Shown here: positions 628 to 63,296 of the stretch, one piece after another | Numbering within the stretch: position 1 is the first letter of the stretch | Layout: every line of letters starts with the position of its first letter | Assembly: GCA_018895275.1 (NCBI GenBank) | Contig: JAHIOQ010000051.1 | Span: 46,409-110,408, forward strand | DNA from: Candidatus Omnitrophota bacterium | GTDB taxonomy: Bacteria > Omnitrophota > Gorgyraeia > B26-G9 | Reading direction: 5' to 3' | DNA: 64,000 bases | Translations under genes and position numbers: made by a program | The notes under the pieces: generated by a model | Told to the model about the DNA's origin: nothing | Database searches by the model: none | What the model saw: the letters and a program-made list of their open reading frames with translations, nothing else

Positions 628-777
628 CAAGTTAATAGGACGCAGATTTTCGCAGATAAATCAGGATTTAAAAATTCTATGCATCTGCGCCTTAATCAAT
701 TTATTTCCTTGAACTCTTTATTCTTAAAATCTTGATAATCTGCGCTCATCTGCGTCCAAAAAGGAAATTCCTATACC
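628..777. mobile_element. miniature TIR-bounded element, copy A (about 150 bp); a shortened relative of the element at 63086-63296
   Basis: The left end GGACGCAGATTTTCGCAGATAAATCAGGATTTAAAAAT (638-675) and the right end at 720-757 are inverted repeats with about 30 of 38 matches. The flanks CAAGTTAATAG and AAAAAGGAAATTCCTATAC are also shared with the 63 kb copy. The right TIR encodes ATGAGCGCAGATTATCAAGATTTT (MSADYQDF) on the minus strand. Confidence 0.55.
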
Positions 778-6240: not shown

Positions 6241-6996
6241 CTATACCTCAATCTCTTTTAATATTTCATCCGGGATATCGAAATTCGCGTAAACATTCTG
6301 CACGTCGTCGTGGTCTTCCAGGGTACTGATAAGATTTAGTATCTGCTGCGCCGTGGACTTATCGTTTATCTTTACCGTGTTTGCCGGCACCTTGGTTATT
6401 TCCGCGGAGACGGCAATAACACCATTGTCTTCCACGGCCTTTTTCACGTTTTCAAAATCCTTTACCGCGGTGCTGATTTCATACGTTTCATCCTGAACAG
6501 TCATGTCTTCGGCGCCGTTTTCCAGGATAATATTCATCAGCTTATCTTCCGCGCACTCTTTTTTCTCAACGATAATCATCCCCTTGGGCTGAAACATCCA
6601 GCTTACGGACCCGGCTCCGGCCATGTTCGCGCCCCTCTTCGAAAAGATATTACGGATCTCGGACGCGGCGCGGTTTTTATTATCCGTGAGCACGTCCACG
6701 AGCATCGCCACGCCGCCGGGGCCATAGCCCTCGTACGTTACTTCCTCGTATATGACGCCGGGCAATTCACCCGTGCCTTTTTTAATCGCCTTTTCGATGT
6801 TGTCCTTAGGCATATTCGATTCTTTCGCGCGGCTTATCGCCAGGCGAAGGCGCGGATTGGCGTCCGGATTACCGCCGCCGCCGAAACGCGCGGCAACCGT
6901 CAGTTCCTTAATCAATTTCGTAAAGACCTTTCCCCGTTTCGAATCTGTTGCTGCCTTTTTGTGTTTAATACTTGCCCATTTTGAATGTCCCGACAT
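6241..6996 (-). CDS. YebC/PmpR family DNA-binding transcriptional regulator
   Basis: The N-terminus MSGHSKWASIKHKKAATDSKRGKVFTKLIKEL is the hallmark of the YebC family. It overlaps ruvC. Confidence 0.85.
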   Translation of the reverse strand: MSGHSKWASIKHKKAATDSKRGKVFTKLIKELTVAARFGGGGNPDANPRLRLAISRAKESNMPKDNIEKAIKKGTGELPGVIYEEVTYEGYGPGGVAMLVDVLTDNKNRAASEIRNIFSKRGANMAGAGSVSWMFQPKGMIIVEKKECAEDKLMNIILENGAEDMTVQDETYEISTAVKDFENVKKAVEDNGVIAVSAEITKVPANTVKINDKSTAQQILNLISTLEDHDDVQNVYANFDIPDEILKEIEV

Positions 6997-7606: not shown

Positions 7607-9661
7607 CTATTCCTCATGTTCATGTTCAAATTTCGCCTGCGCGATTATCTTTTCCGCGATGCGGCCGGGAACCTCTTCGTAATGAGAAAAAGTCATTGAG
7701 TACGAGCCTCTGCCCTGCGTCATCGAGCGCAGTTCCGTAGCATAACGCAGCATCTCGGAGAGCGGCACCTGCGCCTTTATCTTCTCATATTTACCGGACA
7801 GTTCCATGCCCTGCACCCTGCCGCGGCGCGAACTTAAGTCGCCGTTAATCGCGCCCATGTATTCGTCGGGAATAACGATTTCCACGTCCATTAGCGGTTC
7901 CAGGAGGATCGGAGAGGCCTCCACAACGCCTTTGCGCAACGCCATACCCGCGGCGATTTGAAACGCCATATCCGAAGAATCCACTTCGTGATAAGAACCG
8001 TCAAAGATGGTCACGCTTAAATCCACAAGCGGATACCCGGCAATCGCGCCGCCGCCCAGTGCCTTGCGCACGCCCTTTTCCACGGAAGGGATATACTGGC
8101 GCGGCACAACACCGCCGACGACTTTATCCAGGAACACAAACTCCTGTCCGCGCGCAAGCGGATGCAGCTCCAGCCATACGTCGGCATACTGCCCCCTGCC
8201 GCCGGATTGTTTTTTGTATTTTTGATGAATCTTTGTCGACTTCTTTATCGTCTCTTTATAAGGAACCTTCGGCATTCCCACCTCCACTTCCACGTGATAA
8301 CGCTGTTTTAAGCGCTCGATAGCGATTTCCAGGTGCATATCTCCCATGCCGGAAAGAATCAGCTCCTTGGTCTGAGAATCGCGGGAAACACGCAGACCCT
8401 GGTCCTCGGTAGTCATCTTTGCCAATGACTGCGAAATCTTTTCTTCATCCTGGCGCGTCTTCGGCTTCAGGGAAAACGATATCGCCGGTTCCATGAATAC
8501 TTTCTTATTAAACAATAACGGGTGCTTTGCATCGGTAAGGCTGTCGCCGGTATGCGTATTCTTCAATTTCGCCACCGCCGCGATATCGCCGGCGCAAACA
8601 CTCTCCACCGAAAGCTGCTCCTTGCCCTGCATTATATAAATCTGGCCGAAACGCTCCGCAGTGTCCTGCTCCACATTAAAAAATTCCGTATTCGAATTCA
8701 ACACACCGGAGACCACCCGGAACAAACTCAACTGTCCGACATAAGGGTCGGAAATCGTCTTGAACACAAACGCGCTAAAAGGCCGGCTGCTATCGGCAAT
8801 AACCGTCTTTTTTTCTTTTGTCCGCGCGTCAAACGCGTCCACCTGCGTAGTGCTTGCCGCTGCCGGAAAATAGGCAATAATCGCGCTAATCAATTCCTTG
8901 ATGCCCAGTTGCGCAAGCGGATTGCCGCAGAATATCGGCACAATCTGCTGCTGTTTTAGCGCCGTCTTAAACGCGTTATCAATTTCCGCATCGCTTAATT
9001 CCTCGCCGCCAAGATATTTTTCCACCAGCGCGTCATCGGATTCGGCGATAATCTCCACCAGTTTTTCCCGGTATTTCCCTGCCTCCGCCTGCTGTTCCGC
9101 GGAAAGGCCGCTCCATCCTGACTTAGAAAGAAGACTGATTATTCCTTTAAAGCTTGAGATACTGCCTATGGGAAGAAATACCGGAGTACACCTGTCCCCG
9201 AAAACAGCGCGTATAGTATCCACGATACCGTAAAAATCGGAATTATCCTTATCCAACTTATTGATAAAGATTGCCCGCGGCAGAGAATTGGCATCAAGAA
9301 TTCCCCAGGCACGCTGAGTACCAACTTCTATACCGTCCACTCCGCTGATCACCACGATACCAGCCTCCGCGGCAGGCACGGCATTGCGCAGCTCCACGAT
9401 AAAGTCGGCATAACCGGGAGTATCAAGCATATTAATTTTCGTACCGCCGGAAATACAATGCAGTAAAGAAGTATTAATGGAAATTTTGCGCGCTATCTCT
9501 ATCGGGTCATAATCACTAATCGAATTACCGCTGTCAACGCTGCCCTGCCGGGTAACCTGGCCCGCAGCAAAAAGCATGGAATCGACAAGGGTTGTCTTTC
9601 CCGCCCCGGAATGAGAAACAAAGACCACATTACGAATCATATTTTCCGCGTATCTTTCCAT
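7607..9661 (-). CDS. elongation factor G family GTPase (EF-G paralog)
   Basis: 684 aa. It has a G1 motif SHSGAGKTTL, then DTPGYADF and NKLD, followed by EF-G domains III-V. The G1 context diverges from canonical fusA. Confidence 0.75.
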   Translation of the reverse strand: MERYAENMIRNVVFVSHSGAGKTTLVDSMLFAAGQVTRQGSVDSGNSISDYDPIEIARKISINTSLLHCISGGTKINMLDTPGYADFIVELRNAVPAAEAGIVVISGVDGIEVGTQRAWGILDANSLPRAIFINKLDKDNSDFYGIVDTIRAVFGDRCTPVFLPIGSISSFKGIISLLSKSGWSGLSAEQQAEAGKYREKLVEIIAESDDALVEKYLGGEELSDAEIDNAFKTALKQQQIVPIFCGNPLAQLGIKELISAIIAYFPAAASTTQVDAFDARTKEKKTVIADSSRPFSAFVFKTISDPYVGQLSLFRVVSGVLNSNTEFFNVEQDTAERFGQIYIMQGKEQLSVESVCAGDIAAVAKLKNTHTGDSLTDAKHPLLFNKKVFMEPAISFSLKPKTRQDEEKISQSLAKMTTEDQGLRVSRDSQTKELILSGMGDMHLEIAIERLKQRYHVEVEVGMPKVPYKETIKKSTKIHQKYKKQSGGRGQYADVWLELHPLARGQEFVFLDKVVGGVVPRQYIPSVEKGVRKALGGGAIAGYPLVDLSVTIFDGSYHEVDSSDMAFQIAAGMALRKGVVEASPILLEPLMDVEIVIPDEYMGAINGDLSSRRGRVQGMELSGKYEKIKAQVPLSEMLRYATELRSMTQGRGSYSMTFSHYEEVPGRIAEKIIAQAKFEHEHEE

Positions 9662-9696: not shown

Positions 9697-11226
9697 TTAT
9701 TCATTAATTATTCTGTCTTTCGGCTCAACCTTCCACGGATGCGCGGCAACGATAATCGCAAAGAACAACGTATAAATAAGCCAGTCCCTGCCGATCATAA
9801 TGATTGCCACCCAGGAATACCCTCCATACGGCTTCGCCAGCTCCTGCACCAGCGACGAAATAAAAAGGATAATCAACACCAGCGGACAGATAAAGCGTAT
9901 GGACACATCCCACCACTTATTCAGCTTCCAATCACTGAAATGATTGATGTGTTCGCGCAGGCGCTTTGTTTTAAATATCCATCCCACGGCAATACACTCC
10001 AGAATACCCGCCAACACCAGGCCGTATTGCGTAAGGAAATGATCCACGATATCCAACCAGTACAATCCGGCGTGCGTCGTGAAAATGATACTGCCGAGAA
10101 ACCCGATCACACTGAGAACCGAAACCACCACTTTTCTCGGATAGTGAAATTTATCGATAATCGCCGAGGTAAACGCCTCGAGTATGGAAATCGCCGAGGA
10201 TAAACCGGCAATAACCAGTGTGGCAAAAAACATAACGCCGAAAAGTTTCGAAAAATGCGGCAGCAGGCTGATGGCCTTTGGATAGGCGACAAAGGCAAGG
10301 CCGATTGAATCACTGACTACCTCGCTGATATCCTTGCCTGAAGTACCCGCCATATAACCGAGCACGGAAAAGACACCTAACCCGGCAAACAAGGAATACA
10401 GGCAGTTAACTATACATATCACAAACGAATCCTTAACAATCTGGCTCTTTTTCGGCAGGTAAGAGGCATAGGCGATCATAATCCCGAATCCCAGGCTTAG
10501 AGTAAAGAAAATCTGGCTGAAGGCGTCTATCCATACCCCCGGCTCGCGCAGGCGCGGGAAATCAGGGCGCAGATACAGCATTATCCCCTCTTTTGCTCCC
10601 GGCAGCCGGATGCTCCATAAGACTATCACCGCGGTTAAAACAAAAAGCAGCGGCATAAATATCTTATTCGCGCGTTCCAGGCCTTTTTGCACGCCGCCGA
10701 AGACAATCAGCCAGGTCATCCCCCAAACCCCCAGCAGTGAAAACAATATCGGCATACGGAAATCCCGCAGATTAAACGGGCTGTCGCTGAGCATGAGGAA
10801 CTGCTTGAAGAAAAAGGCATTCGGGTTATCCGTCCAGCCCGCGTTAAAAGACAAGAAAAAATAATTCAAACACCAGGAAATGACTACCGAATAATACATG
10901 ATAATGCCGAACATCACAAAGATAACCTGCCACCAGCCCAGCCACTCCCATTTTTTCGATACAACGGCCATACTTGCCGGCGCCGAACCTTTCATCTTAT
11001 GCCCAAGGCCTATTTCCAGGATCATCAGCGGAATCCCGACGATAAGCAAGGCCGTAAAATACGAGATAAGGAACGCGCCGCCGCCGTTCTTATAGCATAG
11101 ATAGGGAAAGCGCCAGATATTTCCTAACCCGATCGCGGAACCGATAGCCGCCAGCAAAAATCCAATATGAGACTTCCATTGAGGACGATGATGGATAAAA
11201 ACATCCTTACTCATACGAACATTCAC
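9697..11226 (-). CDS. sodium-dependent transporter, neurotransmitter:sodium symporter (NSS/SNF) family
   Basis: 509 aa with about 11-12 TM helices. The N-terminal NSS signature is GSAIGLGNIWRFPYLCYKNGGGAFLISY. Confidence 0.8.
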   Translation of the reverse strand: MNVRMSKDVFIHHRPQWKSHIGFLLAAIGSAIGLGNIWRFPYLCYKNGGGAFLISYFTALLIVGIPLMILEIGLGHKMKGSAPASMAVVSKKWEWLGWWQVIFVMFGIIMYYSVVISWCLNYFFLSFNAGWTDNPNAFFFKQFLMLSDSPFNLRDFRMPILFSLLGVWGMTWLIVFGGVQKGLERANKIFMPLLFVLTAVIVLWSIRLPGAKEGIMLYLRPDFPRLREPGVWIDAFSQIFFTLSLGFGIMIAYASYLPKKSQIVKDSFVICIVNCLYSLFAGLGVFSVLGYMAGTSGKDISEVVSDSIGLAFVAYPKAISLLPHFSKLFGVMFFATLVIAGLSSAISILEAFTSAIIDKFHYPRKVVVSVLSVIGFLGSIIFTTHAGLYWLDIVDHFLTQYGLVLAGILECIAVGWIFKTKRLREHINHFSDWKLNKWWDVSIRFICPLVLIILFISSLVQELAKPYGGYSWVAIIMIGRDWLIYTLFFAIIVAAHPWKVEPKDRIINE

Positions 11227-11358: not shown

Positions 11359-11395
11359 GGACGCAGATGAACGCAGATTTACAGGATTTTAAAAT
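11359..11395. repeat. solo TIR of the GACGCAGAT..CGCAGAT element family (third copy, one end only)
   Basis: The sequence GGACGCAGATGAACGCAGATTTACAGGATTTTAAAAT matches the TIRs at 638-675 and 63099-63136. Confidence 0.5.
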
Positions 11396-11480
11396 AATTC
11401 TTATGCAGAGCATATGCTGCATCTACAATTCTTTCAGCAATGGATTCCTCTTTTTCTGACAAGGGTTCAAAATTCATACC
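11379..11480 (-). pseudogene. GxxExxY family gene fragment (first about 27 codons) fused to a TIR repeat
   Basis: Minus-strand MNFEPLSEKEESIAERIVDAAYALHK matches the N-terminal helix of GxxExxY proteins (compare the intact gene 33258-33671, LTEKVIGAAMEVHRILG). It is cut off just before the GxxExxY motif where the TIR begins. The 66-aa ORF 11379-11579 in the track is a chimera of a repeat plus this fragment. Confidence 0.5.
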
Positions 11481-11653
11481 TGTGCCCGTAAGGGTATCTT
11501 TCCTTTGTGCCTTGGTGCCTTGGTGGCTAAAATTTCTACAATTATCCGCCAAATTTTTATTTTTTCTCGCCATGAACATATTCTAGAAATCTCTATTTAT
11601 CTATCCTTATCATCTGAGCTATCAGCGATGAGACAGGAGACAGGAAGATCCAC

Positions 11654-26691: not shown

Positions 26692-28119
26692 TTAGTCAAG
26701 GGTGCGTACCTCCATAATATTTGATGAAAAAAGCATATTATCGCTTGTGAGCATAATCACAACACGCTCGTGCCTGGCTGCCAGCCTATGCGTCTTGACC
26801 AATTCCACGCACTGCCGCAGTGTTTTCGGCAGGTCCTTGAATCCTTCTATCTTTATCGGAAATACCCCCCAGAACAGGATTAATTTTTTGTACACGGCAT
26901 CCTCGGAGGTAATTGCCGCCACCGCGCATCCCGGACGCAGACGGCTTAACCAGGATAAAGAACCGGCATTAAGGGTCGGCACGATAATAACCTTCGCCTT
27001 TATATTTGCGGCTACTTTTACGGCAGACAGGCTGAATGCCTCCAGCAATCCTTCCTCCTGTAGCGCTAATACATCATTCTTTGCCTGACGTATCCGGTGC
27101 AACTCAGATTCGGCCTTTTCCGCGATACGCACCATCGCCAACAGTGCCTCAACAGGAAAATTTCCCATTGCCGTTTCCTCGGAAAGCATCAGCGCATCGG
27201 TGCCGTCTATTATCGCGTTTGCCACGTCCGAAACCTCTGCCCGCGTCGGCTGCGGAGAGTTCACCATGGATTCGAGCATCTGGGTGGCGGTAATAACCGG
27301 CCGGCCGTACCGATTGCATTTTTTTATCAGTTCTTTCTGCAAAAACGGCACCTCGGAATAATCCGCCTCAATCCCGAGATCCCCGCGGGCGACCATAACC
27401 GCGTCGCTGGCGCGGATAATCCCATCAATCTCCTGAAACGCGATTTTTCTCTCTATTTTAGCGATAACAAAGATATTTTTGTTTTTTCTTTTAAGGAAAT
27501 TCTTCACTTTTATAATATCCCCGGGCCGTTGCACAAAAGATACCGCCACGAAGTCCACCCCGTTTTCCATCCCAAAGCGCAGGCATTTCATATCAAAAGG
27601 CGTTACGGAGGCGGTACGCAATATCCTCGTCGGGCAATTCACTCCTTTTCGCGGGTATATCCTTCCGCCTGTAAGCACCTCGCAAAACACCTCTTCGCGA
27701 TTGCGCGAGACCACCACAAGCTTCACCAGTGCGTCATTGAGATAAACAATATCTTTTTTCTTTAAATCCCGCACAAAAGCCGGGTCGTTAATCCCTACCC
27801 CCGCGGCATCACCGGCGATGTTTTTTGAAGTCAGGAAAAACCGCTGTCCCTTCCGCAACTCGACAAAATCACTTTTCAGCAGGCCGATACGGATTTTCGG
27901 GCCGGGAAGATCCTGTAAGACAGCTACCGATGCCCGCAGTTTTAGCGCCAGGCCACGCACGTTTTTCATACTTGCCCCATGTTCGGCAAAAACCCCGTGG
28001 GAAAAATTAAATCTGGCAATATCCATTCCGCCAAGAATCATCTTCTTTATTGTATCGGCATTTTTACAGGCCGGGCCTATCGTACAAACAACCTTAGTTT
28101 TATTCCAATACTGTTTCAT
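26692..28119 (-). CDS. pyk: pyruvate kinase
   Basis: It has KTKVVCTIGPA, MDIARFNFSHG and MVARGDLGIE motifs. The start was set to the ATG at 28119 (MKQYWNKTKVV), which has a GGAGGAAAGA Shine-Dalgarno. This ATG overlaps the stop of the upstream PilZ gene (ATGA). Confidence 0.85.
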   Translation of the reverse strand: MKQYWNKTKVVCTIGPACKNADTIKKMILGGMDIARFNFSHGVFAEHGASMKNVRGLALKLRASVAVLQDLPGPKIRIGLLKSDFVELRKGQRFFLTSKNIAGDAAGVGINDPAFVRDLKKKDIVYLNDALVKLVVVSRNREEVFCEVLTGGRIYPRKGVNCPTRILRTASVTPFDMKCLRFGMENGVDFVAVSFVQRPGDIIKVKNFLKRKNKNIFVIAKIERKIAFQEIDGIIRASDAVMVARGDLGIEADYSEVPFLQKELIKKCNRYGRPVITATQMLESMVNSPQPTRAEVSDVANAIIDGTDALMLSEETAMGNFPVEALLAMVRIAEKAESELHRIRQAKNDVLALQEEGLLEAFSLSAVKVAANIKAKVIIVPTLNAGSLSWLSRLRPGCAVAAITSEDAVYKKLILFWGVFPIKIEGFKDLPKTLRQCVELVKTHRLAARHERVVIMLTSDNMLFSSNIMEVRTLD

Positions 28120-28478
28120 TCTTTCCTCCGGTACGATCGCCAATGCTCATAGGCAAACTCCATCAGGCGGTATCTATCCTCCGGATTTATCTCCAGAACC
28201 TTGATGCCTGCGTCAAAGTCATAAGTCCATTCCTTGCTGCTTTTCGTTATCCAGACGACCTTGCCTTTCATAAACGTGGGAATTATACTTCCCGGCAGCC
28301 ATATCTCCAACTTAAGTATTTTGCCGTTTTCGACGATTCTGTTCAAAGAGGCCTTCAGCCCTTCTTTGCTGAAATTAGTAAGCATTATCAAACCGTTAAT
28401 CCCGTCATCGGTCGCAAAAGTGCCTTCAAGAAACCCGCTCAGCCGCAAATACTTTCTCTTATCCGCATGTTCATCCAT
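28116..28478 (-). CDS. PilZ domain protein (c-di-GMP binding)
   Basis: 120 aa. It has the RxxxR motif (DKRKYLRL) and a D/NxSxxG motif (LTNFSKEGLKA). It has an AAGGAGG Shine-Dalgarno, and its stop overlaps the pyk start. Confidence 0.65.
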   Translation of the reverse strand: MDEHADKRKYLRLSGFLEGTFATDDGINGLIMLTNFSKEGLKASLNRIVENGKILKLEIWLPGSIIPTFMKGKVVWITKSSKEWTYDFDAGIKVLEINPEDRYRLMEFAYEHWRSYRRKE

Positions 28479-28507
28479 TATCCGCCTCCTTAACCTAATA
28501 TCCTTTA

Positions 28508-28567
28508 GCCACTAAGACACTAAATTACAAAATATTTATTTTCTTCGTGCCTTGGTGTCTTCGTGGC
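28508..28567. promoter_or_regulatory. inverted pair of the 13-nt motif GCCACTAAGACAC / GTGTCTTCGTGGC, about 30 nt upstream of PilZ
   Basis: Motif at 28508-28520 and its near-perfect reverse complement at 28555-28567. The same motif recurs at six or more other intergenic sites. Confidence 0.4.
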
Positions 28568-28654
28568 AAATTTATTCGCCAAAAGTCAAAAGTATTTTAT
28601 TTATTTTATCACAACCATCTTAAAAATAAAAGCTTTTGAAAGTGAACAGCCTTA

Positions 28655-30334
28655 CTACATCTCCAGATCCTTCAATGCCCGCGTCCCGGCCGACAAGGAC
28701 ACCCCGATTGTAATTATGCTCAAAAAAACAATAAATATCGCGGCATAAACTATAAGCTTTTTAAATAAAACCTCCGTTATTTGTTCCGTGATAAATAGAT
28801 GGAAAGGCAAAGCCAGCGCCGTAACGTTGACCGCTATATACAATAAGCACAATACCAAGGTTAAAGTTCCGCCGAATCCGGAAACAATCTGCGCCGGGTT
28901 ATCCTCCTTAAAATTCGGGAATAACGCCCCCAGCCCCGTACATAAACTAATCAAGGAAAAACACATTACCACCACGACCATCACGGACAACCACATAAGT
29001 TCAGGTGAAACGGACAGCATGGAATTAGACAGGAGAATCAAAGGCAGGCTTATACATAAAGCCGCAATGCTGTTAAACCAAAACTTTTCAAACAAAATAT
29101 CCCGCTTTTCCAAGGGCGCCAGGCCCAAAATCCAAAAACGCTTTCCCTCCAGACTGATTTGCGGAAAAACAAATCGCACGGATAAAGACGCTAAGGTCAA
29201 ATTAGTTGAGGATAGATTAAGAAAACAAATTATATTTTTCCAGAACGGAAGCACCTGCTCATAGCCTAAATTACGGATATTGGCAAAATAAATCGCCAGC
29301 AGCCCGAAAAATACCGTAAACTGCGACCATTGCACCGGGTCCCGCCAGAAAATCTTTATATCCTTAACCACCAAAGCTTGCGTTGCCAAAGGTAAAAAGC
29401 GCAGGCCGCGGCAGAATTTCGAGATTATATCCTTCTGCGGCAAAAATTCCCGCATCGTTCCGGAAGAACCGCTTCTAAGCCACCCTTCATAATAAAGCCT
29501 CCTCGCGAAAGCAATCCCGATATAGCTGAAAAAAAGCGCGTTACTCAGCAGCAAGAGCCACCAAAAAAGGCTTTCTACATAGAGGCCGGCAATAAATTTC
29601 ATAATTCCTTCGCTGATCCAGAAATTCGGAGCAAAAGCAAATTGGGAGAACCCAAAATGAGGGATAAAGTTAGTAAGCAGGAAAGACACCTCATTTTCCG
29701 ACTGAGAAACCGACCTCCCGGCAAGAAAGAGCCAAACGCACCCGGCAAAAAACAACCCGCTGACCGTCCAGCCGAGGACCTGATAAAATCTGCGCGGCAG
29801 GAATCGGATCAGCAATAAGGTAATTAAACAGCCGATTGCCGCGGCGATAACCGCGAACGGTACAAAAAAAACCAGTAAAAATACGTAAAACGTCCACTCC
29901 AGCTCTTTCACAAAAGCGTAAGCGCTGAGAATCGGCAATAAAAAACATAAAAACGTCCAGGAACTGAGGAAAATCGAATCGATAAATTTTATAAAGTATA
30001 TTTGCGCGTATTCCAACGGCAGGCTGAAAAAAAATGTGGTTTCCCGGGCGCGGTAACCGGTTGAATAACAGATAATACAATTGGAAAAGATAAGCATCAC
30101 AAACAGTCCCATGAAAAACAGATAAAGCAGCCGGTCGACAATTACCAATCCCAGGCTGCCCATAGATTCAAGAAACAAAAACGCGCGGTACGGCACATAA
30201 AACGCAGCGCTAATCAGGCCGATAAATACCAGCCACACGATAAAAATTTTAAGCCGGGAATGCTTCTTTATTCCGGCCAGCCTGTTTTTTACCGCTGATA
30301 CGCGGGCTCTAAATACCTGTTCCACCGCAGCCAT
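28655..30334 (-). CDS. ABC exporter permease (large ABC-2 type, about 12 TM)
   Basis: 559 aa and hydrophobic throughout. It lies immediately downstream of, and 1 nt from, the ABC ATPase gene. Confidence 0.55.
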   Translation of the reverse strand: MAAVEQVFRARVSAVKNRLAGIKKHSRLKIFIVWLVFIGLISAAFYVPYRAFLFLESMGSLGLVIVDRLLYLFFMGLFVMLIFSNCIICYSTGYRARETTFFFSLPLEYAQIYFIKFIDSIFLSSWTFLCFLLPILSAYAFVKELEWTFYVFLLVFFVPFAVIAAAIGCLITLLLIRFLPRRFYQVLGWTVSGLFFAGCVWLFLAGRSVSQSENEVSFLLTNFIPHFGFSQFAFAPNFWISEGIMKFIAGLYVESLFWWLLLLSNALFFSYIGIAFARRLYYEGWLRSGSSGTMREFLPQKDIISKFCRGLRFLPLATQALVVKDIKIFWRDPVQWSQFTVFFGLLAIYFANIRNLGYEQVLPFWKNIICFLNLSSTNLTLASLSVRFVFPQISLEGKRFWILGLAPLEKRDILFEKFWFNSIAALCISLPLILLSNSMLSVSPELMWLSVMVVVVMCFSLISLCTGLGALFPNFKEDNPAQIVSGFGGTLTLVLCLLYIAVNVTALALPFHLFITEQITEVLFKKLIVYAAIFIVFLSIITIGVSLSAGTRALKDLEM

Positions 30335-32600: not shown

Positions 32601-32915
32601 CTATTCCAACCCCAGGGCAAAATTTATTGCTTTATTAACCGCCTCCATTTTCTCTGCCCGAAGCGCGCAAATCCTTTCGGTGATAATACTCTTTCTAACC
32701 GTAGTAACCGTATCGAGATTTATCACGCAGGCTTGCGGCAAACCGTCCTTTTTATCCAAAAAAACTTCTACCGGAATATTCCGAACCGTAGTCGTAATTT
32801 GAGCCACGGTTACGGCATTGCGTACATTATAGGCCTCGTCACGAGAAAGTAAAAGCACCGGGCGTCTGCCCACCGGCTCCGGCTGCTGCGACCACCAAAC
32901 CTCTCCCCGTCTCAT
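32601..32915 (-). CDS. type II toxin-antitoxin system toxin, PemK/MazF family endoribonuclease
   Basis: MRRGEVWWSQQPEPVGRRPVLLLSRD..AVTVAQITTTVRNIPVEV..ACVINLDTVTTVRKS follows the MazF/PemK pattern. It overlaps the upstream antitoxin gene by 4 nt. Confidence 0.75.
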   Translation of the reverse strand: MRRGEVWWSQQPEPVGRRPVLLLSRDEAYNVRNAVTVAQITTTVRNIPVEVFLDKKDGLPQACVINLDTVTTVRKSIITERICALRAEKMEAVNKAINFALGLE

Positions 32916-33169
32916 TTCCAGCCCTCTTCTTCAAAGGCATCCGCGGAAAGCTTCTCATAAACCTTTATTTCGGAAACAGACTCCGGTTTATTGAGATATC
33001 CTTCCTGATACTGTTTTATCAGCTTCTTCTCTTCCATGTTTTTTAGCCAGAAACGAATCGCCGTATCTATAATTGCGCTTCTTTGCATCCCCAATCCTTT
33101 GCGGATTTTTTCAATGCGCATTAAATCTTCCTTCGGTATGCTGATGGCAATTTTAGCGAATTTCTGCAT
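32912..33169 (-). CDS. ribbon-helix-helix (CopG-like) antitoxin
   Basis: KIAISIPKEDLMRIEKIRKGLGMQRSAIIDTAIRFWL is an RHH fold pattern. The start was set to the ATG at 33169, which has an AAGGAG Shine-Dalgarno 6 nt upstream. Confidence 0.65.
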   Translation of the reverse strand: MQKFAKIAISIPKEDLMRIEKIRKGLGMQRSAIIDTAIRFWLKNMEEKKLIKQYQEGYLNKPESVSEIKVYEKLSADAFEEEGWK

Positions 33170-33257
33170 CTCAATCTCCTTCATACTAAAGTATAACATA
33201 TTTCATACCACTTGGCAAGTTGAATGCAAAACTAAACCACACGATTACACGCGATTT

Positions 33258-33671
33258 TCACCAGATTCTTCTTTTTACTTCCAAACTTTCCGTGCCAAAA
33301 TTCAACAATAAACCAACTCTATTCTTTGTAGCTTTGAGATAGTTTAAAAGCTGGGCTTCATCGTTTTTAGTTAAGCCGGTAGTAGCTTTTATTTCTAATA
33401 TTACTTTGTCCTCAATAATCAAATCAGGCGTATATTTCCTTGGAATCAGTAACTCTTTATACCAAATATCTAATTCTTTCTGTAACTCAAAAGGTATCTT
33501 GCTTATTTTCAGTTCGTAGCATAATGCTTCCTGATAGACATATTCCAGGAAGCCATTCCCTAATATCCTATGGACTTCCATGGCTGCGCCTATAACCTTC
33601 TCGGTTAAGTCATGATAAAGCCACTTGTCTGCCTTATCGTGTGTTAATCTAGTGAAATCTTGTGGTTTCAT
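33258..33671 (-). CDS. GxxExxY family protein (intact copy)
   Basis: 137 aa with the eponymous motif GNGFLEYVYQEAL. The N-terminus MKPQDFTRL resembles the peptides encoded by the TIR elements. Confidence 0.75.
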   Translation of the reverse strand: MKPQDFTRLTHDKADKWLYHDLTEKVIGAAMEVHRILGNGFLEYVYQEALCYELKISKIPFELQKELDIWYKELLIPRKYTPDLIIEDKVILEIKATTGLTKNDEAQLLNYLKATKNRVGLLLNFGTESLEVKRRIW

Positions 33672-33747
33672 TTTTTAATATCGTTATATCCATTTCGTGG
33701 TTTATTTTCTTAGTGCTTGGTGAGTTTATGATTAAAACCGGATTTTA

Positions 33748-34062
33748 TTAAAACCCTTTTGTTTCCGACTTGCTGACAATGCGCACAAAACGTATGCCCA
33801 TCTCAAATTTTTTGTTGCCGGAATTTTTATTTTCTTTAAGCCAGACCACCTCAGCGAGGGCATAATAAGGGCTGCTCATGCGTGATATGGCCACTTCAAC
33901 CTCAAGCCGGGAACCGAGGCTAAGCTGCCTATCCGTACAAATGCACACCCCGCCCGCGGAAATGTCCTTTGTCATTGTATTTTCCACGTCATTACTCTGC
34001 TCCAAACAATGCCTAAGCGGCATCTCCTGAACTAAACGCATATGTTTTCTTTTTTCAGCCAA
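33748..34062 (-). CDS. PilZ domain protein (c-di-GMP binding)
   Basis: It has RxxxR (EKRKHMRL) and DxSxGG (KDISAGGVCI) motifs. The likely start is the TTG at 34062, which has a GGGAGGAG Shine-Dalgarno. The 13-nt motif lies just upstream at 34085-34097. Confidence 0.65.
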   Translation of the reverse strand: MAEKRKHMRLVQEMPLRHCLEQSNDVENTMTKDISAGGVCICTDRQLSLGSRLEVEVAISRMSSPYYALAEVVWLKENKNSGNKKFEMGIRFVRIVSKSETKGF

Positions 34063-34108
34063 TGTAAACTCCTCCCTTCTTTTCGACACCAAGACACTAA
34101 ATTTTATT

Positions 34109-38094: not shown

Positions 38095-38730
38095 TTAATT
38101 GAAAATTTTCATTTCTATAACTACTGATTTTGCAACATGTTGCAATCCTAAAAATTCTTCTTCAGAATTATTTTGGGAATAAATTTTAGAAATTCTTATC
38201 AAGCTGCCTTCAATATTCTTACCGGCCAACCGTTTTATTAAAAAATAAAGCTGTTGTTTGTAGTAGCTGTTGGTTATTAATTCATTCGCCGTATAAAAAT
38301 ATAAAACGCTTTGAAATCCTTTCTCCGTCTGCACCAGGAGATAATTTACCGGCACCTTATGGCCGGCACCTATATCCAAAATTACAGTTTCCTTGCGTAA
38401 CAACTCATTCTTACCCGAGCCCAGATAGCAATACTCCGGCGGATGTATGCTGGAACGCCGGCTCGCGCTCTTAAGGATATAGAGATATATTTTTTCGCCC
38501 TCGCTATTGCCATATTCAGCGAGGACTGCGCCGCGCGTGCCGAGAATATTGAGAAACTCTTCATTGATCGGAATATCACGCGAAAAAATCCATTCGCCCA
38601 GACGGCCCGGAACCTGCGGCTTTTCCACGTCATTGCCCTCCTGCACCTTGGCCGTTTTAATCCAGGCAATAAAAATTGCGCAGAACAGTAAAATAATAAT
38701 ACTAATCGTTAAGCTATCGATTTTCTTCAT
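38095..38730 (-). CDS. exosortase-associated EpsI family protein
   Basis: 211 aa with a single N-terminal TM helix then a periplasmic domain. It is located next to the exosortase gene, as is typical for EpsI. Confidence 0.55.
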   Translation of the reverse strand: MKKIDSLTISIIILLFCAIFIAWIKTAKVQEGNDVEKPQVPGRLGEWIFSRDIPINEEFLNILGTRGAVLAEYGNSEGEKIYLYILKSASRRSSIHPPEYCYLGSGKNELLRKETVILDIGAGHKVPVNYLLVQTEKGFQSVLYFYTANELITNSYYKQQLYFLIKRLAGKNIEGSLIRISKIYSQNNSEEEFLGLQHVAKSVVIEMKIFN

Positions 38731-39005
38731 AATGTAGACTCAAATATCCTTTAGCTACTAAGTCACAAAGGCTCTAAAAATACAAACAGATAAGATATTT
38801 CCATTTTATTCCTCTCACAAAGTTCACCAAGCACACAGAGAAATCAAATTACTCCATTGATAACTCTTTTTATTCCGTTTTCAATATTTCTCTGTGGACT
38901 TTGCCCGCTAAGTATTTCTCTGCGATTGCCCGCAGCTAGGTCTCGCCATGTTTTTTGGCGGATGCCCTCTGTGAGAGACTATTAAGCTGCCGCTATTTCC
39001 TTCTT

Positions 39006-39052
39006 GCCTTGGTGCCTTCGTGGCTAATTTATCCGCCAAAAGTCAAAAAACC
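39006..39052. repeat. 47-nt repeat element CCTTGGTGCCTTCGTGGCTAATTTATCCGCCAAAAGTCAAAA containing the 13-nt motif
   Basis: It is near-identical to 28547-28594 and similar to 11509-11565. It contains TTGACT on the minus strand and overlaps the exosortase stop codon. Confidence 0.5.
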
Positions 39053-41650: not shown

Positions 41651-41983
41651 TTAAGCGGCCTCATATAATACTTTCCCATCTCTCAGCGCTCGTCTGATAA
41701 AACTGTTCCATCGGCTCATATCATTTATCTCTCGCGGCGTATAAACGAATATATCCACTCCGACATTCGGCTCGATATCCATATATACACTATCCAGCCT
41801 ATCCAAAAACCGCTGTTTCGTATTTTTAACAATGATTAGATCTATATCACTGGTTAAACCGACCCTGCCGGTAGCTAAGGAACCGAAAAGTATTATTTTC
41901 CGCACGCCGGTTTTATCTATTTTCTTTATAATCCTGGTAAGTTCTTCCTGTAACCTTTTTAGTCTCGGCCCTCTTCCAATCAT
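41651..41983 (-). CDS. nucleotidyltransferase domain protein (MNT-type, minimal nucleotidyltransferase)
   Basis: ILFGSLATGRVGLTSDIDLIIV matches the GS...G...DxD polymerase-beta-like NTase motif. Confidence 0.7.
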   Translation of the reverse strand: MIGRGPRLKRLQEELTRIIKKIDKTGVRKIILFGSLATGRVGLTSDIDLIIVKNTKQRFLDRLDSVYMDIEPNVGVDIFVYTPREINDMSRWNSFIRRALRDGKVLYEAA

Positions 41984-42056: not shown

Positions 42057-42211
42057 CCCTAATGGGCACTTGTTCTTTGGCCACCAAGACACTAAAATAT
42101 TCTTTATTCTCACACAGAGCCGCAAAGTTCACAAAGAATATCTTTAAATTCTATTAATTTGTTTTTTTATTTCTCGCGCCAAGACGCAAAGTCTGCCAGG
42201 ATTAATTATAA

Positions 42212-57760: not shown

Positions 57761-57895
57761 ACTCTAACAAATCCCATCCGTTCAATACCTTAAAACCACC
57801 ATTCAAGCAAAAAGGACAGAAAAATAACAACGCAAATCCATAACAATTATGAAAGATTTAATTTCAAGTGGTTTGGAAATCAAAAATAAACTACT
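57761..57895 (-). pseudogene. degenerate duplicate of an internal wzx segment
   Basis: About 80 percent identical over 135 bp to 56181-56322 inside the flippase gene, in the same orientation. No intact reading frame. Confidence 0.5.
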
Positions 57896-58022
57896 CCAAT
57901 CCTAATGCGAATTTTATCGCTTTATTAATTGCCTCCATTTTCTCGGCCCGAAGCGCGCATATCCTTTCACTAATAATACTCTTCCTGACCGTGGTAATCA
58001 TATCAAGATTCACCACGCAAGA
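57896..58022 (-). pseudogene. duplicate 3' fragment of the mazF/pemK toxin gene
   Basis: About 85 percent identical to 32605-32740. The minus strand encodes ...VINLDMITTVRKSIISERICALRAEKMEAINKAIKFALGLE followed by a stop, but has no 5' part. Confidence 0.55.
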
Positions 58023-58727
58023 TTACAAATGCCGATGGATATATTCCGGTATATAATATTCCACCTGCGTCAAAATAACCCCGAGTAATTTAGTGTGGAG
58101 ATTTTTGATTTGCTCCTGCGTTCTCCATAGGACCTCACGCCGCGTCTTTCCGGCCTGAACCGTCAATAAAACCCCGTCTACACAGGGCGCCAGAATACGC
58201 GCGTCCGCAAAAGGTATGAGCGCCGGAGTATCGAATAGCACATAATCGAATTCTTTTTCAAGCTCTGCTATTAAATCTTTCATTTTCTGCGAAGCAAGCA
58301 GTTCCGCCGGATGAGCCGGAATCTCACCTGCCGGCACGAGGGTTAAATTATTAAAATATGTTTTTGTCAGGATATTATCCAGTTGAGCCTGTCCCTTAAG
58401 AAATTCGCTCAAGCCGAGGCCCGCCGGAGTATTCAGCAATTTTTCGATAACCGGGAAACGAAAATCCGCGTTAACCAGAACTATCTTCTTTTCTTTCTCT
58501 TCTGCCATGGCCAGCGCCAGGTTCACCGCCGTGATCGACTTGCCTTCCTGCCGATTCGCGCTGGCAATTATCATCGAACGGAAGGTTTCTCCTCCGTTTA
58601 TTGAGTTCAAATATGTACGGATATTGCGGTATTGTTCGAAAATCGTTGAGCCCGGATTATAATAGGCAACGACCCGCGGGTCAATCCCTGTTTCATTTTT
58701 GGAATTTGTAACAAAGACATTAAACAT
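58023..58727 (-). CDS. BY-kinase catalytic domain / CpsD-CapB-like P-loop ATPase (exopolysaccharide tyrosine autokinase)
   Basis: Walker A QEGKSITAVNLA, Walker A' VLVNADFRFP and Walker B VLFDTPA motifs. Confidence 0.75.
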   Translation of the reverse strand: MFNVFVTNSKNETGIDPRVVAYYNPGSTIFEQYRNIRTYLNSINGGETFRSMIIASANRQEGKSITAVNLALAMAEEKEKKIVLVNADFRFPVIEKLLNTPAGLGLSEFLKGQAQLDNILTKTYFNNLTLVPAGEIPAHPAELLASQKMKDLIAELEKEFDYVLFDTPALIPFADARILAPCVDGVLLTVQAGKTRREVLWRTQEQIKNLHTKLLGVILTQVEYYIPEYIHRHL

Positions 58728-63085: not shown

Positions 63086-63296
63086 GCACAAGTTAATAGG
63101 ACGCAGATTTTCGCAGATAAATCAGGATTAAAAAATTCTATCATCATTGCATTCTCATAAACCCTCTCCAAAAAACCATATCCAAGTTTGTTATAAACTA
63201 TATAGAAAATTTTGATGATTTTCTCAGTTAGCTCTTTATTCTTAAAATCTTGATAATCTGCGCTCATCTGCGTCCAAAAAGGAAATTCCTATACAA
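63086..63296. mobile_element. miniature TIR-bounded element, copy B, carrying a 5' GxxExxY gene fragment
   Basis: TIRs at 63099-63136 and 63238-63275. An internal minus-strand ORF (63136-63267) reads MSADYQDFKNKELTEKIIKIFYIVYNKLGYGFLERVYENAMMIEF, then runs into TIR sequence. Confidence 0.6.

Follow-up and report, generated by a model that had tools for sequence, protein, structure and literature searches.

Single-domain PilZ proteins act by binding a partner protein once they are loaded with cyclic di-GMP (c-di-GMP), and exopolysaccharide and PEP-CTERM–exosortase functions are the classical, more usual domain of PilZ and c-di-GMP control. Miniature inverted-repeat transposable elements (MITEs), for example the Correia/NEMIS elements, are non-autonomous deletion derivatives of insertion sequences, and small open reading frames (ORFs) are carried in 23S rRNA intervening sequences. 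REPINs are doublets of REP (repetitive extragenic palindromic) sequences that form hairpins (Bertels & Rainey 2011, PMC3116915), and the REPIN literature describes RAYTs as single-copy and mostly vertically inherited; partner binding by PilZ proteins is taken up in the discussion of PMC10100716. Here we analyse a 64,000-nucleotide stretch (the window) of a Candidatus Omnitrophota genome (GenBank assembly GCA_018895275.1, contig JAHIOQ010000051.1, positions 46,409 to 110,408 of the forward strand), in which the gene for a stand-alone PilZ protein, PilZ1, runs into the start of a pyruvate kinase gene (pyk) and is preceded by an inverted pair of 13-nt motifs. A preliminary description had taken the two genes to be translationally coupled and the motif pair to be an operator or attenuator. 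With a probability of roughly 0.75, we read the locus as two separate things: a conserved PilZ1–pyk unit, and a miniature, ORF-less copy of a cassette that carries a GxxExxY gene.

PilZ1 and pyk overlap across related genomes

All genes relevant to this locus lie on the minus strand (Table 1). The stop codon of PilZ1 (TGA, 28118-28116) overlaps the start codon of pyk (ATG, 28119-28117) in an ATGA junction that can be read directly in the sequence, with a Shine–Dalgarno (SD) sequence, GGAGGAAAGA, immediately upstream, and pyk encodes both the kinase barrel and the C-terminal alpha/beta domain (Pfam profiles PK and PK_C). PilZ1 and a second stand-alone protein, PilZ2, both score above the curated cut-off of 22.5 bits for PF07238, and their translations contain the two motifs that the profile check was meant to confirm: RxxxR (RKYLR in PilZ1, RKHMR in PilZ2) and [D/N]xSxxG (NFSKEG and DISAGG, respectively). 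These correspond to R8/R12 and N35-x-S37-x-x-G40 of PilZ1; an alignment of 14 PilZ1-type sequences shows R8, R12 and G40 without variation, N or D at position 35, and S, T or N at position 37. A search of the PDB with the PilZ1 sequence gave no match. The AlphaFold2 model (pLDDT 83.6, pTM 0.74) is a six-stranded beta-barrel plus a helix, and its top Foldseek matches were the PilZ domains of BcsA, YcgR, MotI, VCA0042 and PA4608, with TM-scores of 0.55–0.70. On all sequence and structure criteria tested, both PilZ proteins are ordinary members of the family. The long C-terminal helix of PilZ1 (residues 99-119, encoded at 28119-28184), in which D101, R104, Y110 and W113 are invariant, is a candidate partner-binding surface, and the same DNA encodes the pyk SD.

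We collected 12 relatives of PilZ1 (58–100% identity) and read their contigs for gene context; loci are cited below by our own handles (L003 and so on). Among the GTDB species-representative genomes scanned, which do not include the genome of the window, the closest pyruvate kinases were 59% identical and came from metagenome-assembled genomes (MAGs) of Omnitrophota and of the Planctomycetes–Verrucomicrobia–Chlamydiae (PVC) group. The overlap is kept in eight of the nine distinct Omnitrophota lineages that have PilZ1: the gene ends 4 nt inside pyk, at an ATGA junction, in L083, L085/86, L087/88, L089/90, L281-284 and L285, and a PVC MAG whose PilZ1 is only ~46% identical (L003) has the same overlap as the window. 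L004 is the exception and the sole case of a lost overlap, with a 163-nt gap filled by a repeat that is also found upstream of its PilZ gene; an ~80-nt direct repeat in this locus (9210-9290 and 9838-9916, GGGCCATT...GATTACACCGATTGGATA) flanks PilZ1 and parts it from pyk. L005 has no PilZ1 and carries a PilZ2-type gene directly upstream of pyk, and a PilZ gene precedes pyk in every genome of this group. Purine-rich equivalents of the pyk SD are present in all relatives. A promoter belonging to pyk itself would have weakened the proposed coupling; the sole promoter-like site within PilZ1, a TATAAT at 28287-28282 formed by Ser-Ile-Ile codons, is not kept in relatives, although the amino acids are. 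The coupling suggested in the preliminary description is no accident of one genome. Because the overlap is conserved, the PilZ motifs and fold are kept and the internal TATAAT is not, we regard a coupling between the synthesis of pyruvate kinase and that of a c-di-GMP receptor as probably real and selected.

The PilZ1 leaders of the window, L281, L285, L083 and L085 share two features only, the SD and a promoter block with the consensus GCTTTTATTTTTA ... TGTGATA[A/G]AAT, which has a sigma-70-like match nearby and is just partly recognisable in L089. We infer that transcription starts at this block, an extended −10 promoter at ~28603-28633 that is predicted to drive a single PilZ1–pyk mRNA. PilZ1–pyk would then be a conserved two-gene translational unit of a Candidatus Omnitrophota clade, in which ribosomes that end PilZ1 at TGA would restart at the overlapping pyk ATG, and a single-domain, canonical c-di-GMP receptor would thereby be made along with pyruvate kinase. 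The overlap, its conservation and the PilZ motifs and fold are shown here, whereas we infer that the two genes are transcribed together, that ribosomes re-initiate, that PilZ1 binds c-di-GMP and that the activity of the kinase may be affected. A literature search for PilZ proteins linked to pyruvate kinase returned nothing relevant, and coupled expression of this pair appears not to have been described so far. The conserved stop/start overlap makes a direct link from c-di-GMP to the phosphoenolpyruvate–pyruvate node testable with two purified proteins.

The motif pair belongs to a dispersed extragenic repeat

The two inverted 13-mers upstream of PilZ1 are present as previously described (GCCACTAAGACAC at 28508-28520 on the plus strand and GCCACGAAGACAC at 28555-28567 on the minus strand), and their arms are complementary at 12 of 13 positions. 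The motif that had been noted ahead of the second PilZ gene is also there, just before the PilZ2 SD (GACACCAAGACAC, 34085-34097), as a single arm with two mismatches to the 13-mer. Allowing up to two mismatches, the 13-mer occurs seven times in the window versus 0.64 expected, and none of 100 shuffles reached seven. The 13-mer is a slice of a larger design that the preliminary description had missed: words of 8 nt that read CACNAAGN in gene orientation and follow one another in tandem, two or three to an array, for which the pattern (CTTNGTGN)2-3 has 15 matches in the window versus 2.6 expected. In gene orientation, 5′-type arrays read ..TTGGCGRATAA..GCCAC NAAG NCAC NAAG GCA.. (11502-11527, 28543-28567 and 39000-39024), and 3′-type arrays read TTTAGTG TCTTNGTGGC (28508-28524, 34085-34101, 38754-38778 and 42080-42096). 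Abundance of the motif inside coding regions was to have counted against a regulatory role; the opposite was seen, with all seven word arrays in the intergenic DNA that makes up ~7% of the window (P ~8e-9), a distribution that argues for a dispersed extragenic repeat and not for a regulon. The genes downstream (PilZ1, PilZ2, EpsI, a nucleotidyltransferase) share no functional theme; the intergenic array at 11502-11527 lies upstream of the gene for an SNF symporter and adjoins a truncated GxxExxY gene.

The PilZ1 element has its 5′ arm, loop and 3′ arm enclosed by a left flank (TTGACTTTTGGCGAATAA) and a right flank (GCTAAAGGATATT). The two flanks are found again, at 38743-38758 and 39029-39046, at the copy upstream of EpsI (38095-38730), in which ~220 nt of decayed filler separates the 5′ arm (39000-39024) from the 3′ arm (38754-38778) and whose repeat matches within the window are D2 at 91% and D3 at 68%.

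The family extends well beyond this genome. A 22-nt search pattern with 18 specified bases (TNGCCACNAAGNCACNAAGGCA), run against IMG/VR viral contigs and metagenome contigs, matched 32 IMG/VR contig stretches and at least 120 metagenome contigs, mostly in ~70-nt hairpin elements between genes. Among the matches listed, most of the viral ones and 56 of the 128 metagenomic ones are complete elements, built as GCCAC(NAAGNCAC)2NAAG, an AT-rich loop and then (CTTNGTGN)2CTTNGTGGC; the 65 distinct elements with 3+3 words have a median loop of 19 nt (76% A+T), and the stop codon before an element is a median of 13.5 nt away, the ORF after it ~13 nt. The PilZ1 pair belongs to this word-array hairpin family, as a member that has decayed slightly.

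Words come in several dialects. A second one (GGACGCAGATNNNCGCAGAT) forms the same 3+3 hairpins in 16 viral-contig stretches (L286-L301; for example, L294 ~6400-6480 and L298 2941-3024) and occurs in the window at 630-760, 11359-11392 and 63100-63290. Each related genome has intergenic word-array dialects of its own (CAGA-, GACAAG-, CTATGTG- and CTAAGATG-type), as at L083 8060-8106, at L004 4629-4732, 7003-7034 and 11423-11470, and at L005 2434-2515, where the arrays sit between PilZ2 and pyk. Nested elements were seen in L125, L126, L213 and L117, with other small hairpins (GGTTCAAA words, G+C-rich palindromes) lodged in CACNAAG loops or arms; the same loci also hold elements in tandem with T-runs between them.

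GxxExxY genes carry the same arrays

The array of the PilZ1 5′ arm is also the start of intact GxxExxY genes in three loci elsewhere. In L194 such a gene (TIGR04256, 124 bits) starts ATGCCACAAAGACAGGAAGACATAAAGTTTCACAAAG and has CTTAGTGAAACTTTGTGCCTTCGTGACTTTGTGGCA after it, and cassettes of the same build sit inside an Rnf/Nqr operon (L265) and a microcompartment operon (L275). The peptide MPQRHEDTK.HKE, or a variant of it, starts 68 of the 120 closest homologues of the L194 protein and is the translation of the array GCCAC-AAAG-ACAC-GAAG-ACAC-NAAG. A further GxxExxY subfamily, which occurs in WOR-3 bacteria and in Methanophagales archaea and is 70–84% identical to the window protein, carries arrays of the CCACGAGATT type at either end, and its last codons (R-I-L-stop) form the first 3′ word. 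The intact gene of the window (33258-33671; GxxExxY motif GFLEYVY in translation) is likewise bracketed by inverted CACNNGAT words, arranged as CACAAGATTT CACTAGATTAA CACACGAT at the 5′ end and AATCGCGTG TAATCGTGTGG at the 3′ end.

Truncated copies fall between these genes and the ORF-less elements. The array at 11.5 kb adjoins a 32-codon remnant (..SIAERIVDAAYALHKN) that corresponds to the N-terminal helix of GxxExxY proteins, with ~14 of 23 residues identical by eye to the L194 protein. A truncated cassette with the same N-terminus and array lies between purH-like and glyA-like genes in L188, and in the GGACGCAGATGAGCGCAGAT / ATCTGCGAAAATCTGCGTCC dialect the element at 63100-63290 encloses a longer GxxExxY fragment and that at 630-760 almost nothing. 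The arms of the window element match the cassette ends of L194, L265 and L275, and the copies at 11379-11527, 63100-63290 and L188 are truncated intermediates. Full cassette, truncated cassette and ORF-less hairpin are thus documented as a series, with the motif pair as its last stage: it is probably a miniature ORF-less derivative of a GxxExxY cassette inserted in the 5′ untranslated region (UTR) of PilZ1–pyk.

A full cassette of ~0.5 kb comprises a gene for a PD-(D/E)XK-type GxxExxY protein of 125–142 aa between inverted arrays of about three tandem words, in the dialect of the PilZ1 element GCCAC-NAAG-NCAC-NAAG... for the 5′ array and ...CTTNGTG-NCTTNGTGGC for the 3′ array. In the origin that we propose, deletions inside the cassette would yield truncated copies and then hairpin-like elements of ~70 nt, which would lodge in short intergenic gaps much as MITEs and REPINs do, and one such mini-element would have inserted between the conserved promoter and the PilZ1 SD in this lineage. 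Given that position, the element is predicted to be part of the 5′ UTR transcript. Any effect on PilZ1–pyk expression, for example through an imperfect leader hairpin, would be a possible, lineage-specific by-product. More broadly, and at somewhat less than even odds, we suggest that GxxExxY PD-(D/E)XK proteins and their inverted tandem-word arrays constitute an undescribed class of nuclease-borne mobile cassette that moves between bacteria, archaea and virus-like contigs, sits co-oriented inside operons, spawns large populations of ORF-less hairpins and is the PD-(D/E)XK counterpart of REPIN/RAYT, the motif pair being one offspring. Cross-domain nuclease cassettes with miniature offspring are the most interesting lead of this analysis.

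GxxExxY proteins 70–84% identical to the queries occur in Omnitrophota, WOR-3, Bacteroidota and Methanophagales archaea (P0063, P0095, P0016 and P0180), and one identical sequence (P0095) stands in two gene contexts (L101 and L103); such identity across phyla and domains, together with the two contexts, suggests recent cross-domain transfer. Several cassettes are wedged co-directionally into operons with gaps of ~0–85 nt on each side (L091 2001-2417, L265 1501-1929, L275 1501-1929 and L101 2001-2387), between host genes such as an ABC-2 permease and a Wzt ATPase, two Rnf/Nqr subunits, or an aldehyde dehydrogenase and EutN. This wedged position may explain misleading annotations of small GxxExxY proteins. 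The GxxExxY sequence had no match in the PDB, PADLOC and PHROGs gave nothing beyond a marginal Cas4-like score, and a literature search for GxxExxY/PDDEXK_3 together with repeats found nothing relevant.

Table 1 Features of the window (positions from its first letter)
Feature	Position	Strand	Remarks
Pyruvate kinase gene (pyk)	26692..28119	−	475 aa; PF00224 351.5 bits, PF02887 62.6 bits
PilZ1	28116..28478	−	Stand-alone PilZ-domain protein, 120 aa; PF07238 31.9 bits
Shine–Dalgarno of pyk	28120..28129	−	GGAGGAAAGA; within the 3′ end of PilZ1, directly upstream of ATGA
Miniature word-array element	28497..28591	−	In the predicted 5′ UTR; putative ORF-less derivative of a GxxExxY cassette
3′ arm of PilZ1 element	28508..28524	−	TTTAGTG TCTTAGTGGC; two words and a decayed third
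5′ arm of PilZ1 element	28543..28567	−	GCCAC GAAG ACAC CAAG GCAC GAAG; three 8-nt words
Predicted promoter block of the PilZ1–pyk operon	28603..28633	−	GCTTTTATTTTTA ... TGTGATAAAAT (extended −10); from leader conservation
PilZ2	33748-34062	−	Second stand-alone PilZ protein, 104 aa, TTG start; Pfam PilZ 47.1 bits
Solo 3′-type arm	34085..34101	−	TTTAGTGTCTTGGTGTC; between GspK-like stop codon and PilZ2 SD
Second copy of PilZ1 element	38754..39024	−	Upstream of EpsI
3′-type arm	42080..42096	−	Upstream of nucleotidyltransferase gene (41651-41983)
ORF-less second-dialect element	630..760	−	GGACGCAGATGAGCGCAGAT ... ATCTGCGAAAATCTGCGTCC; repeat matches D4, D7, I1, I2
Truncated cassette	11379..11527	−	5′ arm GCCACCAAGGCACCAAGGCACAAAGG (11502-11527) and 32-codon GxxExxY N-terminal remnant MNFEPLSEKEESIAERIVDAAYALHKN...
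Intact GxxExxY gene with own inverted word arrays	33225..33672	−	PF13366 138 bits, TIGR04256 144 bits
Second-dialect element with truncated GxxExxY frame	63100..63290	−	..LTEKIIKIFYIVYNKLGYGFLERVYENAMMIE; local hidden Markov model E = 1e-6
Exopolysaccharide / PEP-CTERM–exosortase locus	36613-61844		Directly upstream of the PilZ genes

Alternative explanations

The preliminary description had the inverted 13-mers serve as an operator or attenuator, a bound regulator co-controlling the two PilZ genes and thereby pyruvate kinase. Their placement is compatible with this: the pair sits between the PilZ1 promoter and SD, a related half-site precedes the PilZ2 SD, and every copy is intergenic. However, a site for a shared regulator would be expected to be conserved, and this motif is not. 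The word array is missing from the PilZ1 and PilZ2 leaders of L003, L004, L083, L085, L087, L089 and L285, and from the L003-5 and L083-89 loci as a whole, even though the genes, the extended −10 promoter and the SD are conserved in the array-less leaders; the ~95 nt that lie between promoter block and SD in the window have no counterpart in L285, L083, L085, L087 or L089. In the closest relative (L281, PilZ1 77% identical), the loop, 3′ part and right flank are those of the window element but adjoin another 5′ arm (GGGACGCAGATAAACGCGAAC), and additional sequence lies upstream, which points to turnover of elements at one site. PilZ2 orthologues come after a GspK-like gene in all relatives, across a spacer of 29–51 nt that is clean in L083 and L087 and holds other word hairpins (CACTTAT-type) in L085 and L089. 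The same arrays stand upstream of EpsI and the nucleotidyltransferase gene, flank GxxExxY remnants and lie between arbitrary genes in many unrelated environmental contigs, and PilZ2 has one arm only. No terminator-like site was found in 28050-28750, and Rfam 15 gave no gathering-score match in the window, with chance-level matches only in the element-rich loci L117 and L134. The lack of conservation largely refutes the operator and, with it, the idea of a shared regulatory input on PilZ receptors; we rejected both on these comparisons and give a bound regulator a very slim chance. Other candidate signals were also discarded: an intrinsic terminator of the upstream ABC operon (none found), a sigma-54 promoter in the left flank (TTGGCG-N-TTGC, GG–GC spacing one base too long by eye, with an insertion in copy A) and a sigma-70 promoter inside the motif (TTGACT ... 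TAAATT, spacer only 9 nt, the conserved promoter being upstream of the element).

A role for the element at the RNA level, with an imperfect 5′ UTR hairpin altering mRNA stability, processing or ribosome access, is compatible with a repeat origin and fits several features. The leader (28476-28600) folds at −26.1 kcal/mol versus −18.5 for shuffles (z = −2.8), its minimum-energy structure partially pairs the left flank with the SD region, elements lie 5–20 nt from SDs in many contigs, and in gaps between genes of the same direction A.C is found on the sense strand 23 times versus 8 for G.T. Against this, the variable arm positions do not covary, with 20% Watson–Crick pairs versus 25% in shuffles; the second variable (M) position is mostly A.C or G.T and depleted in Watson–Crick pairs, on the sense strand mostly as A.C mismatches, and the stem is broken every fourth base. 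There is also neither an Rfam match nor a terminator-like site, and close relatives lack the element. A functional hairpin is doubtful given this absence of covariation, and we consider co-option as RNA unlikely. In the viral subset the N positions looked "anti-complementary" (10% pairing with G.U counted versus 33% in shuffles), but this was not borne out by the metagenome subset (34% Watson–Crick), so only the absence of covariation is claimed. Absent covariation and the A.C orientation bias together argue that the words themselves are what is recognised, in an orientation relative to transcription that matches that of full cassettes. The words could instead be sites for a host chromosomal protein, of the nucleoid or gyrase type proposed for REP sequences, on which GxxExxY genes merely land. 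Words that are conserved where pairing is not, strictly extragenic elements and nested insertions of other small hairpins in the arrays (L125, L126, L213) would suit such sites; however, the arrays are physically part of GxxExxY genes, contributing the start codon and N-terminus or, in other dialects, the last codons, and flank-matched cassettes occur in bacteria and archaea, which argues against a host-specific factor. We regard this explanation as quite improbable.

Several observations nevertheless weigh against our two-part account. On the side of the cassette, the intact GxxExxY gene of the window is in a different word dialect from the PilZ1 element, and among the matches listed a GxxExxY gene is present in just one of 152 pattern-retrieved loci (L194), so mini-elements either vastly outnumber cassettes or are independent of them. 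It is for this reason that the link to GxxExxY was drawn from the protein side. The arm positions fail to covary, as set out above. We found neither a duplicated target site nor an excision footprint nor an intermediate of transposition, and a comparison of filled with empty PilZ1 leaders, which have diverged too far to define junctions, showed no evident duplication. That the GxxExxY nuclease would recognise and mobilise the word arrays is a guess by analogy with REPIN/RAYT and MITEs only. On the side of the gene pair, the functional link of PilZ1 to pyruvate kinase is a proposal read from gene arrangement, and both PilZ genes border a large exopolysaccharide/exosortase locus that holds a secretin, a GNVR chain-length protein, a flippase, many glycosyltransferases, Wzy_C and GH20 as well as the exosortase EpsH, EpsI and a PEP-CTERM protein. 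GGDEF and EAL genes are absent from the 64-kb window. Irrespective of where the repeat came from, a role of PilZ1 as a c-di-GMP-dependent regulatory partner of the kinase is possible and, in our estimate, rather doubtful.

Neighbouring insertions

An antitoxin/PemK-toxin pair (32601-33199) and the GxxExxY gene (33258-33671) lie between PilZ2 and a transglutaminase gene. Relatives L083, L085 and L089 have only 8–13 nt at this place, which marks the block as a lineage-specific insertion. For its 3′ part, the PemK toxin gene has a second copy of 81% identity (57891-58024 versus 32601-32734), which is intergenic, beside an AAA_31 gene of the polysaccharide locus, and resembles a toxin gene fragment.

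Comparison with known systems

The best structural matches of PilZ1 are single-domain PilZ adaptors (the YcgR PilZ domain, 5y6g; MotI/DgrA, 5vx6; PA4608, 1ywu; Alg44, 4rt0), with which it shares the six-stranded barrel, the N-terminal RxxxR and [DN]xSxxG. It differs from them in its long conserved C-terminal helix. The partners known for such proteins comprise flagellar motors, secretion ATPases, polysaccharide synthases and DNA, and the literature search brought up no case of one coupled to an enzyme of glycolysis.

For the repeat, whose family is common in uncultivated bacteria and viral-classed contigs, the account given here would say concretely how it arose and would tie it to the very large GxxExxY protein family; if the nuclease does mobilise or maintain the arrays, they would represent miniature mobile DNA of a new type that has spread across domains. 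Word arrays offer simple signatures with which to annotate thousands of small intergenic elements and to correct GxxExxY start codons. A general lesson is that, where two paralogues have short palindromes upstream, these can be debris of a repeat and not an operator.

Searchable literature, Rfam and PADLOC/PHROGs contained no description of GxxExxY-linked repeats, and the nearest parallels lie in three other systems. Like the ORFs of 23S rRNA intervening sequences, the GxxExxY cassettes are small genes within inverted repeats inserted in a transcribed region; unlike them, the copies seen here lie between protein-coding genes and their arms pair poorly. The resemblance to MITEs is closer: terminal inverted repeats, shared with a longer gene-bearing element, are kept and the internal gene deleted, copies are graded from full through truncated to minimal, and insertion is near gene starts, so that the elements would be co-transcribed. 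In contrast to MITEs, no recognised transposase or target-site duplication was seen, and the ends are built of tandem words.

As judged from these features, the repeat behaves like a REP/REPIN or a MITE, except that it lacks the RAYT association and a recognised transposase. No RAYT (IS200/IS605-like tyrosine transposase) flanked by the repeats was seen in the loci examined, and GxxExxY genes stand in that position instead in L194, L265 and L275. The protein is thus of PD-(D/E)XK type here, whereas RAYTs are HUH tyrosine transposases; the arms are tandem words of 8–10 nt and not an imperfect palindrome, with no pairing maintained at variable positions; and GxxExxY genes occur in multiple copies and have been passed between phyla and domains, whereas RAYTs are described as single-copy. 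What the two have in common is the design: short extragenic repeats arranged as inverted doublets with a spacer (all seven arrays of the window intergenic; 65 doublets with a ~19-nt spacer), numerous and scattered between genes, together with a small nuclease-type gene that is itself flanked by the same inverted repeats.

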